From positions 91 through 64,090 of the forward strand of contig CAZSXU010000024.1 of the NCBI GenBank assembly GCA_964610505.1: 64,000 nucleotides of DNA. The letters are read 5' to 3'. This document shows positions 4,751 to 60,873 of this stretch, piece after piece. A model generated the notes under the pieces. It was not told the origin of the DNA, searched no databases, and saw nothing but the letters and a program-made list of their open reading frames with translations. Every line of letters begins with the position of its first letter. The first letter of the stretch is position 1. Source of the DNA: an uncultured bacterium (GTDB lineage: Bacteria; Arandabacterota; Arandabacteria; JAGLYR01). The position numbers and the translations under genes are program-made.

Positions 4751-5089
4751 TCACTTGAACACATGATCCATCGCTTCCAGCGCGAAGCGCGCCGACACGG
4801 TCGCCCGTCCGCCTCCGATCTCCATGGCGACGCCGAGGGTCTCGACCATTTCCTCCATCGTCGCTCCCGCGCGGGCCGCCTTGCGAATGTGCCACTCCAT
4901 GCAGGATTCGCAGTCCGTGACGACCGAAATCCCGACGGCGATGAGCTCCTTGATCTTGACCGGCACATGTCCCGGTGAGAAGGCGGCCTCCTCCAGCTTG
5001 AGGAACGCCTTGTAGGCCTTGGAGTCCAGGTCCAGAAGCCTCTGGTGAGCCTGTCGCCTGGTCTCGACAATCTCTTGAATCTTGCTCAT
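4751..5089 (-). CDS. Carboxymuconolactone decarboxylase / AhpD-like family protein
   Basis: MSKIQEIVETRRQ... with the AhpD-core CxxC motif (VVTDCESCMEWHIRKA). Start is ATG at 5089 with a GGAGGA SD (revcomp of ggaggatttc). The track ORF extension to 5164 is not needed. Confidence 0.85.
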   Translation of the reverse strand: MSKIQEIVETRRQAHQRLLDLDSKAYKAFLKLEEAAFSPGHVPVKIKELIAVGISVVTDCESCMEWHIRKAARAGATMEEMVETLGVAMEIGGGRATVSARFALEAMDHVFK

Positions 5090-5254
5090 CGAAATCCTCC
5101 CTGACGTTGGAATGGTCTCACCGTCGTGCCCTCGGACTCTACGCGGCGCGTGTCCCGGGCGCAACGTCCAATGGAGTCTTCACTCATGGGACCAATGCGG
5201 GAGTTCAAGGGTGTTGCTTTCGAGGGCCGGTCAGGCAGGTGAGCGCGATCGTTC

Positions 5255-10836: not shown

Positions 10837-12546
10837 TCAGGGTTTTCCCGGCAGTCGCGGCGACACGAACACCACCTCTTCGTTGGTCACGAGTGCGAGG
10901 CCCGGTTTTCCCTTGCGCGGCTTCCGCACGTATTTCTTCTCCGTGTAGGTCACGTCCACGGTTTTCGATCTTCGCCCCTTGCTGTAGTAGGCGGCGATTT
11001 GGGCGGCCTCCTGGATGGTCTTCCGGCTCGGCCGCTGGTTCCGATCGGGCCGCCGCAGAACGACGTGGGAGCCGGCCAGCCCCCGGGCGTGAAACCAGTA
11101 GTCGTGGGGCGCGGCGCGGGAGTGAGTGAGAAGATCGTTTTCTCGATCGTTACGGCCCACCCACACGGTCCATCCGGTAGTCGTCTGAAACGTCCGGAAG
11201 GGAGCAGGGACTTCCTTCTTCGAGACGCCCGCTGCCCGGCCCTCTCGGGGCAGCAGTCCCAGATTTCGCGCAACAGCCCGAAGCGCTTCTCGCTCCAGAG
11301 AGGGTAGATCGCGAATCTCCGCATCCAGCTCGTCTCGGCGTCTCGCCAGGCGCTCTCTCTCCCGGGCCAGTGCCTTCTTGGCGCGCTGGGCCTTCCTCGC
11401 CTTGGCGAAGTACATTTCGGCGTTGCCCCTGGGGGACTTCGCCGGATTCACGGGGATTCGTATGTGGGGGCGGTCGAGATTGTAGTGGTCGATGACGCTC
11501 ACCTCATCACGCCCCCGCGTCAGGGTTCCCAGGTTGGCCAGAATCAGTTCGCCGAATCGGCGGAACTCGGCCTCCCGGGCGGCCTGCTTCGTCCGGACCG
11601 CCACTCTTTCCAGGCTTCGCAGAACCCGCTTCGATTCCTCCCGGAGGCGCCGCTCGATCTTATCTCGAAGGGCAGCGTCCCGCTCGGCGGGCACCGTGGA
11701 GCGGTAGTAGGCGGATACGGCTTCGGACACCCGGCCGAAGCGCGTGCACGTCTTGCCCTCGAGATGACGGACGGGCACCGGCGAGACGGCCACGGGTGCC
11801 TTCGTCTCGGGATCCACATACACACAGGGCTCAAATCGGCCGGCCTTGATCAACGCTACCCAGGCGGCCAGATGGCTCCAGGTCAGATCCACCTGCCACG
11901 GTCTGAGCCTGCCCAGAGGTAGGGTGGGCTCCAGATCGGCCCGGAACAGAATCTCGTCGGCCCAGAAGGGTGAGATTCCCGTGAAGCGACGGACCAGCGC
12001 GTCGTGAAGACCCATGTCCGGGAAAGCTGCAAACATTTCCCTCACCGATTCGAGTGTCGTCGACAGAACTTCAAGGCGCGAAACAGCGGCGGTTCGTCCG
12101 CCCGGTTTACGGGACCGGGGAATCACGCCCGGTTTGAGGCTCACGAGCGATCCGTCCGACGATTCCAGATACAGATTGGCGCTCCTTCCGAAGAGGCGAA
12201 GCATGAGGGTCACTTGCTCGCTCGGACCGAAGGTCGGCCGTCTGGAGAAGCCGAAAGCAACCCTGCGATCGAAGCCGATTTGCCTGATTTCGGCAAGCAC
12301 GGCCCTCGACAGGTACACTTTCAACGTGTTGACGAAAGCCCCGGGCTCGATTCGGGGCTCCGGGACCGTGAGGGGCTCGACTCGGGGGAAGTCCGGATCG
12401 CAGGAGAGGGCCAGGTATCGAGTCTCGTCGTCCTTGCGAACGGCGATCTGGAGGGTCCGGGGGGCGGTTTGTTCAACGGCGCGGACGGAGCCGCCCGTCC
12501 ATCCCACCAGTTCGGGGAGCAGTGCATGGAGAAGGAACGCGTCCAT
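10837..12546 (-). CDS. rqcH: RqcH/FbpA (NFACT-family ribosome quality-control protein, fibronectin-binding protein A homologue)
   Basis: NFACT-N (…ILANLGTLTRG…DHYN) and a C-terminal NFACT-R/DUF814 block (GWTVWVGRNDRENDLLTHSRAAPHDYWFHARGLAGSHVVLR). Confidence 0.85.
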   Translation of the reverse strand: MDAFLLHALLPELVGWTGGSVRAVEQTAPRTLQIAVRKDDETRYLALSCDPDFPRVEPLTVPEPRIEPGAFVNTLKVYLSRAVLAEIRQIGFDRRVAFGFSRRPTFGPSEQVTLMLRLFGRSANLYLESSDGSLVSLKPGVIPRSRKPGGRTAAVSRLEVLSTTLESVREMFAAFPDMGLHDALVRRFTGISPFWADEILFRADLEPTLPLGRLRPWQVDLTWSHLAAWVALIKAGRFEPCVYVDPETKAPVAVSPVPVRHLEGKTCTRFGRVSEAVSAYYRSTVPAERDAALRDKIERRLREESKRVLRSLERVAVRTKQAAREAEFRRFGELILANLGTLTRGRDEVSVIDHYNLDRPHIRIPVNPAKSPRGNAEMYFAKARKAQRAKKALARERERLARRRDELDAEIRDLPSLEREALRAVARNLGLLPREGRAAGVSKKEVPAPFRTFQTTTGWTVWVGRNDRENDLLTHSRAAPHDYWFHARGLAGSHVVLRRPDRNQRPSRKTIQEAAQIAAYYSKGRRSKTVDVTYTEKKYVRKPRKGKPGLALVTNEEVVFVSPRLPGKP

Positions 12547-12552
12547 CGGCCC

Positions 12553-13614
12553 TCATTCGATCACACGAATTGTCCCGGCGGCTCCGTCCCGGATTTCGCC
12601 GATCCGGGCGACGGAATCGACCCCGGCGGAGGCCAGCCGTTCCGAGAGCACGGCGGCCTTCCCGGGAGGCGCTGAAATGAGCAACCCTCCGGAAGTTTGA
12701 GCGTCCGCCAGGAGGATGCGCGTGATCTCGTCCATCTTCGCCGGAAACTTGACGAAGGGCTCCAGAAACTCGAGGTTGTTCTTGCTTCCGCCCGGCACGG
12801 CGCCCTGGGACGCGTACTTGAGGGCCGAGGGGAGGATCGGAACGTCCGGGGCGGTAACGAGGGCCGACACTCCGGAGGCTGCGAGCATTTCGTGGAGGTG
12901 GCCGAGGAGGCCGAATCCCGTGACGTCCGTGCAGGCGTTGACGCCGACCTCGGACATCACCTCGGAGGCGGATCGGTTGAGCGCCGCCATGAGAGTCGTG
13001 ATCTCATCAATCTCGTCGGGGTTCGCCAGATCGCGCTTGATCGCCGTGGTGACGATTCCCGAACCCAGCGGTTTGGTCAGGAACAGGCGGTCGCCGGGGC
13101 GGGCGCCGGCGTTGGTGATAACGCGCTCGGGGTGAACCAGGCCCGTCACGGCCATCCCGTACTTGATCTCATCGTCCTTGACGGTGTGTCCACCGACGAT
13201 GCTCACGCGGGCCTCGACGGCCTTGTCCAACCCTCCCTGGAGAATCCGGACCAGGATTTCCAGGGGAAGTTTGTTCTCGGGGAAACCGATGACGTTGAGT
13301 GCGGTCACCGGCCGCCCGCCCATGGCGTAGACGTCGCTCAACGCGTTGGCCGCAGCCACATGGCCGAAAGCGTAGGGGTCGTCGACCATGGCCGTGAAGA
13401 AATCCACCGTCTGAACGAGGGCCAGATCGTCACGCAAGCGATACACGCCGGCGTCGTCCGCCGTGTTGGACCCGACCAGTACGTTGGGGTCCGGCGGAAT
13501 GTTCAACTGCTTCAGAGCCTGTTCCAAGCCCTCCGGGCTCAGCTTGCACGCTCAGCCCGCGCCGCTCGTGGTCTGGGTGAGCCGGAAGGGTTTGTCGTTC
13601 GAGGGCTTTCTCAT
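12553..13614 (-). CDS. selD: Selenide, water dikinase SelD (selenophosphate synthetase), selenoprotein with in-frame UGA (Sec) at 13552-13554
   Basis: The track ORF (12553..13527) starts at TTG inside the gene. Reading the same frame upstream through TGA (plus tca 13552-54) gives [58 protein letters not shown], which aligns with E. coli SelD [30 protein letters not shown]...DPNLLVGNETRDDAAVY with Sec at the Cys17 position. ATG is at 13614. The rest of the protein is typical SelD (AIR-synthase-like: [17 protein letters not shown]...[10 protein letters not shown]). Confidence 0.9.
13520..13551 (-). promoter_or_regulatory. Putative bacterial SECIS hairpin immediately 3' of the selD UGA
   Basis: The mRNA reads UGA GCG UGC AAG CUG AGC CCG GAG GGC UUG G. 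CAAGCUGAGCCC-GGA-GGGCUUGG folds into a ~8-bp stem (including G-U pairs) with a small G-rich apical loop starting ~6 nt after UGA. Confidence 0.5.
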
Positions 13615-13801
13615 GCGCTTGCTCCGTCGTCTCCGTGAGAACACCCAAGACTACTCAGGTCATGAGGAGAACGTCAAGACACAAAAGAGCCGAGAGTGGA
13701 TTTGCCCGAACATGGGCTTGTGTTCCGGGTCGATGTGTGATACGAGAACGGGGATCACTGTCACACGCCCGGTCTGTGTTTCTGATCTCATGGGGGTTCG
13801 G

Positions 13802-53523: not shown

Positions 53524-56500
53524 CGGCGATCGCGAATACTCCGGTGGAGACGTCCCTGAGGCGGAAGGACCTCTCGTCGAGGAGACCCTCGGTGAGACCG
53601 CCGAAGAGCCCGCGTCCGAAGAACCCCGGGCGGCCCTGGTCGTCGGAGGCGGGATTGCGGGTATCCAGGCGGCCATCGATCTGGCCGACTCCAATCTCCA
53701 GGTGTACCTGGTGGAACGGTCTCCGAGCCTGGGTGGACGCATGGCCCAGCTCGACAAGACCTTCCCGACGATGGACTGCTCCATCTGAATTCTCGGTCCT
53801 CGAATGATGGATGCCGGTCGGCATCCCAACATCAAGGTTCTGACCTACTCGGAAGTCACGGGTCTCACGGGCGAGGCCGGAAACTTCACGGCCACGGTGC
53901 GGCGTCACCCCCGCTTCGTCAGAGAAGATCTTTGCACGGGGTGCGGCCAGTGTGTGGAGAAGTGTCCCGTGGTCGTCCCCAACGAGTTCGACGAGGGACT
54001 GGGCGCGCGAAAAGCCATCTACTCGCCCTTCGCCCAGGCCGTTCCCAACGTCTACGTCATCGATCGCGAACATTGCCTGAACAGCGACTTCCTGGTTTGT
54101 GAGAACTGCAGCAGATCCTGCGAGAGAGACGCGATCGACTACGACATGAAGCCCGAGGATCTCGACCTCCGGATCGGGGCCGTGGTGGTCGCTACGGGTT
54201 TTGATCTGTTTGATGCCCGCGCGATGAAGAACTACGGCTACGGTCTCTATCCCAACGTGCTGACCTCCCTTGAGCTCGAACGGATGCTGAACGCATCGGG
54301 CCCCACCCGGGGACACATCTTTCGGCCCACGGATCGGAAAGTCCCGCGATCGATCGTCTTTGTCCAGTGCGTGGGAGCCCGGGGAGAGGCGGGCCAGCAG
54401 TACTGCTCACAGTTCTGCTGCATGAACTCGGTCAAGGACTGCATGCTGGTCAAACAGCACGCGCCCGAGATCGAGCGGCTCGAGATTCTCTACACCGACG
54501 TGAGAGCCGCCGGAAAGGGGTTCGAGGAGCTCTACATCCGATCGCTCTCGCAGCCCGAAGTGTCCTATACGCGGGGCCGGCCCTCGAGGATCGAAGAAGA
54601 TCCCGACACGCAGGACCTCATCGTTCACGTGGAAGATACGAAAACGGGAAAGATCGAGAACGTTCGGGCCGAGATGGTTGTCCTCTCCTCGGCCGCCATT
54701 GCGGGGGCGAGGAATCGAAAGCTGGCCGAGGGCCTGGGAATCGATCTGGATCACCACGGGTACTTCCTGTCTCGGGAGGCGGAGGGAGAGTTGTTGGAGA
54801 CGACCCGTTCGGGCGTCTATCTGTGCGGGTGTGCCGGCGGCCCGAAGGACATCTCGGACTCGGTGGCCCAGGCCTCGGGAGCGGCCGCACGGGCGGAGGC
54901 TCACCTCGCGAATTGCCGGAGGCCTACGGAGAAGACGGAGGTCGAACCCCTGGATCTCTCGGGGCCTCCCCGGGTCGGCGTATTCCTTTGCCACTGCGGG
55001 ATCAACATCGCGGGGGTTCTGGATATTTCGACGTTGGGGGAGTCGGCCCGCGCCCTCCCGCACGTGGTCCATGTCGAGGAGAATCTGTTTCTCTGTTCGG
55101 ACACGGGACAGCGGGCGGTGCAGGAGGCCATTCGGGAGCACAAACTGAATCGTGTGGTGGCGGCGGCGTGCACGCCGCGAACGCACGAGCCGATCTTCCG
55201 CCAGAGCTGCCTGGAAATGGGCCTTAACCCTTATCTTTTCGAGATGGTCAATGTGCGGGACCAGTGTTCCTGGGTTCACACCCAGGAGCCGGCCCTGGCC
55301 ACCGAGAAGTCATTGGACCTTCTCCGGATGGCGGTGGCCCGGGCCGTCCGGCTGGAGCCTCTGGAGGCCCAGGAGATTTCGGTCGAACAATCCGCCATCG
55401 TGATCGGTGGGGGAATCGCCGGGATGCAGGCGGCCCTCGACCTGGACCGGCAGGGATTTCCGGTTACTCTCATTGAACAGGGAGACGCCCTGGGCGGGCG
55501 GCTGCTCGAAATCCACCGTCTCTATCCTGATTTCCGCGAGACACGCGTGCTCCTGGACGCCAAACGCCGAGACGTGGAGGCGAGCCATGTCGTGGTTCAG
55601 ACCGGAACCGAGGTGCGGTCGATCGGGGGCTTCGTAGGAAACTTCGAGGTGACGACGGATCACGGTACCCTCAAGACGGGCGCGATCATCCTGGCGATCG
55701 GTTCGGACCTCTACCGGCCCAAGGGGGAGTACGGCTTTGGCACGTACCCGAACGTGATTACGGGGCTGGATCTGGAGAGGCTGTTCTCCTCCTCGGGTGA
55801 GACCCTCATGCAAGACGGACGAGAGATCAAAACGGCGGCGTTCATCCAGTGCGTGGGATCTCGAGATCCCGAGGGACGCATCAGCTGCTCCCGTTACTGC
55901 TGCCCCACGACGGTGAAGCAGGCGATCGAGATGAGAGACCTCGGTGTGGAGGCGGTTGTTTTCTACCGCGACATGCGAACGGTGTCCCAGGGAACCGAGG
56001 AGCTGTACCGTCTGGCCCGGCAGAAAGGCGTACGTTTCATTCCCTACACGCCCGAGTATCGGCCGCGCGTTTCCGGGAACGAGGTCGCCCAGTCCGTAAA
56101 GGTGTTCCACGACATGCTCGGGGACGACGTCGAGGTCGACGTGGACCTCGTCGTGCTGGCCACGGCCATGGTGCCCCGCGAGAAAGAGACGGCCGATCTC
56201 CAGATGCTCCTGAAAGTGCCTCGCGGGACCGACGGCTTCTTCATGGAGCGGCACGCGAAGCTGGGACCCGTGGAGACGGTGGTGGAAGGGGTCTTTGTCT
56301 GCGGAACGGTCCAGGGGCCGAAGGACATCGCCGAATCCATCGCGCAGGCATCGGCGGCCGCGGCCAAGGCCGCCGCCCTGATCTGTCGCGAACGAATCGA
56401 GCTGGAACCCACGACGGCGGTCGTGGATACGGCCCTCTGCAGAGCCTGTGGCCGGTGCGTGGAGATTTGCGATTTCCATGCGCCGGAGATCCAAGATCTG

Positions 56501-56659
56501 CCGACCGGGCTTCGGGCCGCCGTGATCAACCAGGCCCTGTGCAAAGGATGCGGCACCTGTGCTTCGTTGTGCCCGACCGGAGCCATTGCGGCCCGGCACT
56601 TCACCGACGAGCAGATCTTCGCCATGATCGAATCGTTGCTCCTGGGAGAGGTGGTGTAG
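53504..56659 (+). CDS. hdrA: Heterodisulfide reductase subunit A-like flavoprotein, selenoprotein (in-frame UGA at 53786-53788), double-module ~1051 aa
   Basis: Track ORFs 53504..53788 and 53804..56659 are in the same frame, separated by TGA. Read-through gives ...[36 protein letters not shown], matching the conserved HdrA FAD-domain motif KTFPTxDC(S/A)xCIL(S/T)PKM(V)E(A)GRHPNI with Sec replacing the second Cys. Module 1 is GxGxxG FAD ([20 protein letters not shown]), Fd ([13 protein letters not shown]), and CVGAR...YCSQFCC. Module 2 is a Cys-rich N-domain ([14 protein letters not shown]...), a second FAD domain ([17 protein letters not shown]), CVGSRD...CSRYCC, and a C-terminal 2x[4Fe-4S] ([24 protein letters not shown]). 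Confidence 0.85.
53809..53826 (+). promoter_or_regulatory. SECIS-like hairpin GGAUGCC-GGUC-GGCAUCC downstream of the hdrA UGA
   Basis: A perfect 7-bp stem with a GGUC apical loop begins 21 nt after UGA. GGUC is also the apical loop of the E. coli fdhF SECIS (GGUUGCA-GGUC-UGCACC). Confidence 0.6.
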
Positions 56660-57160
56660 ATGGCCAGGAAGAAAACGCCCGGAGCGAAAACCCCCGCACG
56701 GGGCCGGAAGAAAGCGGTGGAATTCGTTCCCCGGATCATCGTTTTCGCGTGCAACTGGTGCAGCTATGCCGGGGCGGACAACGCCGGGGTCAACCGGATT
56801 CAATACTCCCCGCATTTCCGGGTCATCCGGACCATGTGTTCGGGACGCGTTCATCCCTCCTTCGTTCTGAGGGCCTTCGAACTGGGCGCGGACGGAGTTC
56901 TGGTCTCAGGATGCCACATCGGGGATTGTCACTACATCTTCGGAAATGAGAGGGCCATCGAGAACTTCGAGAAGACCAAGGCTTTGGTCAAGACCCTGGG
57001 TCTCGAAGAGGGCCGGATCCGGCTGGAGTGGGTTTCGGCCGCCGAGGGCCCTCGTTTCGGACAGGTCATCGATGAATTCGTCGATGCCGTTCGCAACCTG
57101 GGGCCCTCGCCGATCGGGAAGAATGGAGGGGCGGCCACGGGTGCTGAACCACGAAAGTGA
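56660..57160 (+). CDS. mvhD: MvhD-like (methyl-viologen-reducing hydrogenase delta subunit family / FlpD-like) [2Fe-2S] protein
   Basis: [18 protein letters not shown]...[39 protein letters not shown] is the hallmark MvhD motif. Confidence 0.85.
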   Translation: MARKKTPGAKTPARGRKKAVEFVPRIIVFACNWCSYAGADNAGVNRIQYSPHFRVIRTMCSGRVHPSFVLRAFELGADGVLVSGCHIGDCHYIFGNERAIENFEKTKALVKTLGLEEGRIRLEWVSAAEGPRFGQVIDEFVDAVRNLGPSPIGKNGGAATGAEPRK

Positions 57161-58371: not shown

Positions 58372-60873
58372 ATGTTCGAGACGGCAAAGACAGACGGGAT
58401 CAGGGTCGGCGTGTTCGTCTGCGATTGCGGACTGAATATCGCAGGCACCGTGGATACGGAGGCGGTGGCGGAATACTCCCAGACCCTGGACGACGTGGTC
58501 GCCGTGATCCGCAACAAGTATACCTGCGCCGACCCCGGGCAGAATGAGATCAAGAAGGCGATCGTCGAACACAACCTGAACCGTGTGGTCGTCGCCTCCT
58601 GCACGCCGAAGATCCACGAGCCGACGTTTCGAAACTGCGTGGCCGAGGCGGGACTCAATCCGTATCTCTTCGAGATGGCCAACATCCGGGAGCACGTGAG
58701 CTGGGTCCATCAAACCGAGAAGGAAGCCGCCACCCAGAAGGCAAAGGACATCGTCAGGTCCGCCGTGGCTCGGGCCCGGCTGCTGGAAGCCCAGACCGAG
58801 GCAGAGGTGAAGGTCACACAGGCGGCCCTGGTCATCGGTGGGGGGGTGGCGGGAATCCAGGCGGCGCTGGATCTGGCCGACTCCGGCCATACGGTCTACC
58901 TGGTGGAGAAAGAGCCGACGATCGGCGGAATTATGGCCGCCCTCGACAAAACCTATCCGACCATGGACTGCTCCATATGAATTCTCGGTCCGAAAATGAT
59001 GGATGCCGGTCGGCATCCCAGGATCCGGCTTCTGGCCAACAGCGAAGTCACCGACGTCAAGGGATACATCGGGAATTTCACGGTGACGATCAGGCGCAAG
59101 GCCCGCTACGTGGACGAGACCGAATGTACCGCTTGCTCGGAATGCGCCAAGGTCTGTCCGGTTGCGGTGCCGGATGAGTACCAGCAGGGATTCTCCTCAC
59201 GGAAGGCAATCTATATTCCTTTCCCTCAGTCTGTTCCGTCCTCCTACATCATCGACATGGAGAGCTGCCTCGGGAATAACCCCATCGCCTGCGGGAAATG
59301 CCTGGAAGCGTGTGACAAGGACTGCATCGACTTCGACGCCAAGGACGAGTTCATGGAGGTCGAAGTCGGGACCGTCATCGCCGCCACCGGGATGGATGTA
59401 TTCGACCCGTCCGGCCTGGATGAATACGGGTACGGCAAGTATGAGAACGTGATCACGAGCATGGAGTTCGAGCGGTTGATCTGCGCGGGAGGGCCCACGG
59501 AGGGACACTTCATCCGGCCGAGCGACCGGAAGCTGCCGATGAGAATCGGATTCGTCCAGTGCGTCGGCTCCCGGTCCGAGAGAGGGGGCGTCCCGTACTG
59601 CGGCAACATCTGCTGCATGAACACCATCAAGGATACCCTTCTGCTGGCGGATCACTACCCGGACGTGGAATCCACGGTGTTCTACATGGACATTCGAGCT
59701 TTCGGGAAGGGATTCGAAGAGCTCTACCGGCGAAGCAAGGAGGAAGGGGTCCGCTACATTCGAGGCCTTCCGGGGGAGATCCTGGAGGATCCCAAGACCC
59801 GGAACCTCCGCGTGCGGGTGGAGAACACCACGGCCGGACGCCTGGAAGAGCACGAGCTGGACATGGTGGTCCTCTCGGTGGGAGTGATTCCCCGTCACGA
59901 TTCTCCCGCCATTCGCCAGCTGCTGACCCTCTCGAAGACGGCGGACGGTTTTCTCATGGAATCGCACCCGAAGCTGAAGCCCGTGGATGCCCCGACCCGG
60001 GGTGTATTCTTCGCCGGTTGCGCCGAGTATCCCAAGGACGTCAAGGATAGCGTGACGCAGGCGTCCGCTTCCGCTGCCCGCGCGGAGATTCTGCTCAACC
60101 AGGGGAAGGTGACCATCGAGGCCATCACGTCGAGGATCGACGCCGAGAAGTGCATCTTCTGCGGCCGGTGCGCGAAAGTCTGTCCGTATAACGCCATCAC
60201 CCAGCCCGATCGGAAGAAGAAACTGTTGCCCATGGTGGTGGAGGCTGCGTGTGCCGGGTGTGGAACCTGTGCGGCCGAGTGCCCGACGGATGCCATTGCG
60301 ATGCGGCATTTCACGGACGAGCAGATCCTGGCTCAGATCGATGCCTATCTGGCGGAGAAACCGGAAGAGCAGATTGTCATCTTCGCGTGCAACTGGTGTT
60401 CGTACCCGGGTTCGGACCTGGCCGGGACCTCGAGAATTCAGTATCCGACGCACGGCCGAGTGATCCGCACGATGTGTTCGGGGCGCGTGGACGAGAAATT
60501 CGTTCTCCGCGCCTTTGAGCTGGGGGCGCCGCTGGTGCTCGTGTCGGGGTGTCATTTCTCCGATTGCCACTACATCAGCGCCGTGCAGTGGACGCAGGCG
60601 CGAATCGAGAAGCTCTGGGACAAGCTCGAAAAGCTGGGCATCCGCCCCGAAAGGCTCCAGCTGGAGTGGATCAGCGCGGCGCAGGGCCAGAGATGGGCCG
60701 AAACGATGAAGGCCCTGGAGGATCTGCGTGGGAAGGTGACGAGGGAGGAGATTCAGGAAACCCGGAAGATCCTGACGGATCTCCGGGCGAAAAAGGGTGC
60801 GGGAAAGACGAAAGCCAAGGCCAAGGCCAAAACCAAGGCGAAGGCCAAGGCTAAAACCGGCACGTCGGAGTGA
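58372..60873 (+). CDS. hdrA: HdrA-like flavoprotein fused to C-terminal MvhD domain, selenoprotein (in-frame UGA at 58978-58980), ~833 aa
   Basis: Track ORFs 58372..58980 and 58996..60873 share a frame across TGA: ...[36 protein letters not shown]. Domain order is Cys-rich N-domain ([14 protein letters not shown]), FAD ([20 protein letters not shown]) with Sec, Fd ([13 protein letters not shown]), CVGSR...YCGNICC, and 2x[4Fe-4S] ([24 protein letters not shown]), then MvhD ([18 protein letters not shown]...[39 protein letters not shown]). An AGGAGGTGA SD sits before ATG 58372. Confidence 0.85.
59001..59018 (+). promoter_or_regulatory. SECIS-like hairpin GGAUGCC-GGUC-GGCAUCC downstream of the second hdrA UGA
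   Basis: The nucleotide context is nearly identical to the first hdrA: ccatggactgctccat(a/c)tgaattctcggtcc...aatgatggatgccggtcggcatccca. Confidence 0.6.

Follow-up and report, generated by a model that had tools for sequence, protein, structure and literature searches.

Selenophosphate synthetases (SelD) that themselves contain selenocysteine (Sec) have been recognised since the 1990s, and a long-standing proposal from the literature of that decade is that Sec-type SelD/SPS2 entails positive feedback on selenium. Among bacterial selenoprotein families, SelD ranks with one other as the most widespread (PMC1794560; PMC13188914), and its catalytic residue is carried by a glycine-rich loop of the form G-x-G-[C/U]-x-x-K (PMC13188914). 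Here we analysed a 64,000-nucleotide stretch of DNA from an uncultured bacterium (contig CAZSXU010000024.1; hereafter, the window) that carries a selD gene with an in-frame TGA in this loop. The gene is very probably a Sec-type selD, its UGA read by standard bacterial Sec decoding. The parts of the gene model are as follows, in window coordinates.

12553–13614, minus strand: full-length selD coding sequence (selenide, water dikinase, with Sec predicted at residue 21), 353 codons plus a TGA stop, from the translation, hidden Markov model (HMM) matches and the alignment with Escherichia coli SelD.
13612–13614, minus strand: the ATG taken as the true start of selD; relatives have Met in the same place, a GGAG lies upstream and in-frame stops lie farther upstream.
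13622–13625, minus strand: Shine–Dalgarno-like GGAG, 7 nucleotides (nt) ahead of the selD ATG, a consensus match read from the sequence, with a putative function.
13552–13554, minus strand: in-frame UGA, the predicted Sec codon for residue 21, aligned with Cys17 of E. coli SelD.

Translation of the reverse complement from position 13704 revealed a single frame that runs from the ATG at 13614–13612 through the in-frame TGA at 13554–13552 to the stop at 12555–12553. The stretch from the ATG to the TGA contains no other in-frame stop. In close relatives the matching position, about 20 codons ahead of the TGA, is likewise a Met. A promoter scan upstream of selD detected nothing. The initial annotation of this DNA had proposed that a UGA-interrupted selD frame extends upstream, and had named an in-frame stop or a poor alignment upstream of the TGA as findings that would speak against the proposal. 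Neither was seen: the frame is open throughout and homology spans the UGA.

With Cys put at the TGA, the 353-residue protein scored 395 bits against the TIGR00476 selD model (cut-off 125), in a match from residue 11 onward, and 355.6 bits against NF002098 (cut-off 299; residues 7–349). The best match among solved structures was E. coli SelD (3u0o; E = 1.9e-80), residues 7–347 aligning with residues 3–340 of that protein. The TGA falls on Cys17 in this alignment, confirming that the proposed Sec sits at the catalytic Cys17 position, and the G-x-G-[C/U]-x-x-K loop is present, with GAG-U-ACK aligned with GAG-C-GCK of E. coli SelD. Precomputed Pfam matches for the window product (P0001 in our set of public gene calls) comprise the AIRS and AIRS_C domains (PF00586 and PF02769). 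HMM matches, loop motif and domains thus identify the predicted product as a selenide, water dikinase, which would synthesize selenophosphate from selenide.

The in-frame TGA is conserved among relatives. We assembled related DNA from 80 species-representative genomes, 51 metagenome contigs and 8 contigs encoding the closest homologs, in which 128 loci were scorable. The aligned codon was TGA in 107 of these loci and TGC or TGT in the other 21, proportions that are no population estimate because the loci were picked by similarity to a Sec-type query. Sec-type loci span Chloroflexota, Desulfobacterota, Bacillota, Acidobacteriota, Methylomirabilota, Latescibacterota and other groups. TGA was found in all nine distinct closest relatives (around 70–93% identity), in the context RLT..(T/S)SGAG-U-ACK(L/M)S. 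Within a clade of nine members (the window and eight relatives), the residues that never vary ahead of the TGA (R, L, T, S, G, A, G) are each encoded by two to four synonymous codons, indicating that this region is translated and under protein-level purifying selection. A separate group of SelD homologs, many of them and probably of the Cys type, are full length at 516–613 residues, share 54–59% identity and are fused to an aminotransferase class V/cysteine desulfurase domain (PF00266; P0010, P0014, P0018, P0019, P0023, P0041, P0051 and P0064); some bear the JGI label 'selenium donor protein'.

In the consensus for the bacterial selenocysteine insertion sequence (SECIS), an apical loop of 3–9 nt closes an upper stem of 4–16 base pairs (bp), at least one G occupies the first two loop positions (usually G, then G or U), the gap from the UGA to the apical loop is 16–37 nt and the free energy is -7.5 kcal/mol or lower (PMC13188914). 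A hairpin of this kind follows the selD UGA.

13524–13542, minus strand: predicted bacterial SECIS hairpin, with its 5′ arm at 13542–13535, a GGA loop at 13534–13532 and its 3′ arm at 13531–13524, from folding and comparative support.

After the UGA, the mRNA reads GCGUGCAAG-CUGAGCCC-GGA-GGGCUUGG, in which an 8-bp stem pairs nt 13–20 with nt 24–31 (the U of UGA being nt 1). The initial annotation had described a stem-loop directly after the UGA; the stem-loop stands but 'directly' does not, as CUGAGCCC-GGA-GGGCUUGG starts 9 nt downstream. The hairpin is the minimum-energy structure on single-sequence folding. A comparison with the SECIS model, recommended in the same annotation, revealed agreement on all four counts: a 3-nt GGA loop on an 8-bp stem (or a 5-nt loop on a 7-bp stem), a loop that opens with GG, a UGA-to-loop gap of 17 nt (nt 4–20, after the UGA) and a folding energy of -9.8 kcal/mol for the 19-nt core or -20 kcal/mol for a 65-nt stretch. 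By these sequence features the hairpin is a bacterial SECIS element, one that SelB would bind and that would permit read-through of the UGA.

Comparison with relatives further supports the hairpin. We aligned 100 distinct Sec-type selD sequences without gaps and used 21 Cys-type genes as a natural control. Standard pairs filled 75.9% of cells in the Sec-type alignment at the register of the window, compared with 19–53% when the 3′ partners were slid by one to three columns. The covariation score was 0.169, against 0.125 ± 0.007 in shuffles, and 0 of 500 shuffles reached the observed value. Double changes occurred at pair 16–28 (G-C in 61 sequences, A-U in 12) and at pair 18–26 (U-A in 62, C-G in 8), with the window's clade having the A-U and C-G versions, respectively. 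The loop positions read GGC, GGG, AGG, GGA or UGA in 76 of the 100 Sec-type relatives. Pairing at the window register reached 76% of cells in Sec-type but 52% in Cys-type genes, at least seven of the eight pairs could form in 43 of 100 versus 0 of 21 sequences, and mean fold z-scores were -1.34 and -0.20, respectively (Mann–Whitney p = 5e-4). Codon choice in the nine-member clade was similarly skewed: each of the three unvarying residues encoded in the stem (Ser AGC, Gly GGC and Leu UUG) has one single codon throughout, compared with 1 of 38 outside it (hypergeometric p about 4e-4). UUG accounts for 8.3% of Leu codons in the window, yet it is the codon required for pairing with A16. Together, these comparisons support the predicted selD hairpin beyond the demands of the protein code. 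In Desulfobulbaceae and related Sec-type selD genes (loci L008, L012, L013, L014, L030 and L042), the best hairpin lies around 5 nt farther downstream and is of the UCCGGG-GGA-CCUGGA type.

Two further genes in the window contain an in-frame UGA followed by a hairpin.

53786–53788, plus strand: UGA in the first HdrA-type gene, assigned by Pfam HdrA-type domains, with the hairpin GGAUGCC-GGUC-GGCAUCC at 53809–53826.
58978–58980, plus strand: UGA in the second HdrA-type gene, an MvhD/FlpD fusion assigned by Pfam domains, with the same hairpin sequence at 59001–59018.

HdrA is among the listed bacterial selenoprotein families (PMC1794560). Both TGAs sit in an identical motif, TMDCSI-U-ILGP(R/K)MMDAGRHP, at the known Sec position, and in both genes 27 nt separate the UGA from the GGUC loop; the two Sec-HdrA genes of the initial annotation are therefore upheld. 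Other candidates were rejected. The hdrA/mvhD junction at 56657–56662 (plus strand) consists of a TAG and an adjoining ATG, as at any normal gene boundary; the upstream parts of other TGA-joined pairs of open reading frames (ORFs; 514, 5180, 33186 and others) are non-coding; and at 4751–5182 (minus strand) a TGA lies 16 codons ahead of the ORF of a CMD/AhpD-like gene, but the protein begins downstream of it, at MSKIQE, and its CESC motif is of the Cys type. The segment 49589–53523 (plus strand), immediately ahead of the HdrA/MvhD/HdrB-like (CCG domain) genes, encodes POR, POR_N and PFOR_II domains (2-oxoacid:ferredoxin oxidoreductase), and the adjoining hdr cluster spans 53.5–60.9 kb. This gene content suggests a ferredoxin-linked electron-transfer module. 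Judging by gene content, selenium would serve core energy metabolism in this organism, as the initial annotation had proposed.

Several results weigh against a SECIS-directed Sec codon in selD. The folding energy of the hairpin was no better than that of shuffles (z = 0.16 for 65 nt and -1.20 for 221 nt); the sequence is 62% G+C, so stability alone is not evidence and support was taken from relatives. There, the A-U and C-G variants come mainly from the window's own clade and thus represent few independent events, and pairing derives mostly from conserved columns (73.0% in shuffles compared with 75.9% observed), which also encode a conserved G-P-x-D-L peptide. RNAalifold returned no consensus pairs for the 100 Sec-type sequences; the likely reason is that the hairpin is shifted by around 5 nt in some clades and that about a quarter of cells are unpaired. 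Scanned at gathering thresholds, the full window yielded no Rfam match, which neither supports nor refutes a SECIS. For the decoding machinery, ARAGORN detected no tRNA-Sec, nor any other tRNA, in the 64-kb window, and a Pfam scan of 40 predicted window proteins found no SelA or SelB. Because selA, selB and tRNA-Sec are not within the window, we infer the Sec machinery, with the two HdrA-type UGA genes and the ordinary use of TGA as a stop as good indirect evidence.

Under standard decoding, translation of selD would start at the ATG at 13614, and SelB carrying Sec-tRNA(Sec) would bind the hairpin at 13542–13524 and deliver Sec to the UGA at codon 21, both steps by analogy with the E. coli mechanism. 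The product would be a 353-residue selenophosphate synthetase with Sec in its GAG-U-ACK loop and, by homology, synthetase activity. Alternatively, the UGA could be decoded via the SECIS but with insertion of Cys, always or in selenium shortage, by a selC* tRNA(Cys)UCA. Such tRNA(Sec)-like tRNA(Cys) species with a UCA anticodon occur in some Desulfobacterota, Clostridia and Nitrospirae, and the opal codon of Desulfomonile tiedjei selD, which a selC* tRNA(Cys)UCA can read, yields a functional SelD as either Sec or Cys (PMC5389517). The resulting Cys-SelD could start the pathway before any selenoprotein exists, and nothing in the window tells which tRNA reads the UGA. No selC*, selB* or cysS* is present in the window, however, and genomes with selC* also had a full Sec system (PMC5389517), so a selC* tRNA would supplement Sec insertion and not supplant it. 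Three separate UGA sites at classical Sec positions also fit ordinary Sec decoding, and we consider Cys insertion an improbable account of this gene.

The public annotation of selD rests on a different reading of the same codon. The ORF list starts the gene at the TTG at 13527, giving 324 residues, and P0001, the public call for this exact sequence on a 68.9-kb JGI contig, is also 324 residues long and cut at the same point. The initial annotation had noted that the ORF track cuts selD at an internal TTG; this codon (13527–13525) proved to be that of Leu-30.

13525–13527, minus strand: false start TTG, the Leu-30 UUG in the 3′ arm of the SECIS, with a GGAGG just ahead of it, to which loop and 3′ arm both contribute.

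The loop and 3′ arm (13524–13534, minus strand) read GGAGGGCUUG, a Shine–Dalgarno-like GGAGG with the UUG 2 nt on. Gene finders end one frame at the UGA and pick up again at the first codon that could serve as a start, which is this UUG within the SECIS stem. Database calls for relatives begin either at this UUG or, where Met replaces the Leu four codons past the UGA, at that AUG (MSPEGL...); for example, MCK4547499.1 at NCBI, which derives from a Candidatus Eisenbacteria genome bin, is deposited as 329 residues from MSPEGL and lacks the catalytic loop. As the SECIS stem itself supplies the start-like UUG or AUG and the GGAGG, the truncation is systematic for the clade. The nearest protein-database homologs (69–100% identity) are all 321–329 residues long, with around 91–93% query coverage, whereas more distant homologs (54–59% identity) are full length, a pattern expected if gene callers cut the whole clade at one place.

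If the TGA were a true stop, selD would be a pseudogene or would yield only the 324-residue product from the TTG at 13527, which is how automatic gene callers read it and for which a GGAGG is present just ahead of the TTG. The 2 nt between that GGAGG and the TTG are too few for a normal ribosome-binding site. The 324-residue annotation starts past the glycine-rich loop, so its product would lack the G-x-G-[C/U]-x-x-K motif with the catalytic residue, and neither the retention of TGA in 107 of 128 relatives across phyla, unlike a random nonsense mutation, nor the protein-level purifying selection on the 20 upstream codons is compatible with such a lesion. We therefore judge a true stop to be even less probable than Cys insertion. 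That the GGAGG and UUG within the SECIS stem act as an internal start under selenium scarcity is conceivable but unlikely. A reassigned code without Sec, in which TGA specifies Trp or Gly, would account for the in-frame TGAs of three window genes but is effectively refuted, as TGA is the normal stop of 19 of 37 predicted window genes (selD included), the three in-frame TGAs occur only where homologs have Cys or Sec, each with a hairpin downstream, and no other gene in the window is convincingly interrupted by TGA.

Sec-type selD with standard decoding thus remains the reading that we favour, and its neighbourhood bears on the lineage that carries it. The best named relative is 72% identical, and the order of the genes around selD, encoding TPR, S8 protease, CxxCxxCC, PfkB, spermidine synthase-like, HEAT/cyclophilin, SelD and NFACT proteins, is common to contig DAOVNO010000006.1. 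On both grounds, a relationship of the lineage to Candidatus Eisenbacteria is probable. In the library that was searched, no paper connected Candidatus Eisenbacteria with selenocysteine. The window also encodes several very large predicted secreted proteins and proteases (S8, M28 and C25; 8008–10374, 20449–22389, 25408–28314 and 35150–39670), and two of these have C-terminal FlgD_ig-type domains, of a kind often tied to type IX secretion. These proteins fit an FCB-group or Eisenbacteria-like organism.

Downstream, in the interval 10837–12555 (minus strand), the selD TGA is followed 6 nt on by a co-oriented gene for an NFACT/RqcH-type ribosome quality control factor. The selD–NFACT pair is kept in the seven related loci, from six distinct relatives, that reach far enough downstream, with NFACT identities of 59–93%. 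Adjacency to NFACT as a general feature of selD was rejected, as it was found in 0 of around 120 more distant selD loci. It is conceivable, although we attach little weight to the idea, that the NFACT/RqcH factor is co-expressed with selD to handle ribosomes that stall or abort at slowly recoded Sec codons.

Sec-SelD ranks second among bacterial selenoprotein families in how widely it occurs, and the window gene adds a member to it; the result is mainly an annotation correction that leaves general understanding unchanged and whose value is practical. The selD gene model is corrected here and in the public entries of relatives, and their systematic mis-annotation is explained by the start-like codon and GGAGG of the SECIS stem. 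Together with the two Sec-HdrA genes, selD flags a lineage that has received little study as one that uses selenocysteine, a point of relevance when metabolism is reconstructed from metagenomes, and selenocysteine in an Eisenbacteria-related lineage is a modest taxonomic extension.

Compared with the Cys-type E. coli SelD (3u0o), the window protein shares the fold family, the length, an end-to-end alignment and the motif rltq..gagCxck. The two genes differ at the catalytic codon: E. coli specifies Cys17 by UGC and requires no recoding element, whereas the window selD has UGA and a SECIS. In this it resembles the Sec-type SelD of other bacteria, such as Desulfomonile tiedjei and Moorella, which have the UGA within the glycine-rich loop near the N terminus, at the codon matching Cys17 of E. 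coli, and most of the Sec-type relatives examined likewise have a SECIS hairpin in the coding sequence just past the UGA, in a matching register. The window's clade departs from most Sec-type selD genes in having A-U and C-G where others have G-C and U-A (pairs 16–28 and 18–26), and in encoding the peptide S-P-E-G-L rather than G-P-G-D-L. The SECIS of E. coli fdhF has a GGUC loop and a bulged U. The selD hairpin is like the fdhF type in lying inside the coding sequence shortly after the UGA and in having G residues that open a small apical loop, but its loop is GGA, or CGGAG should the closing C-G pair open, in place of GGUC, and it shows no evident bulged U. Both hdrA hairpins in the same window, unlike that of selD, have the fdhF-like GGUC loop.

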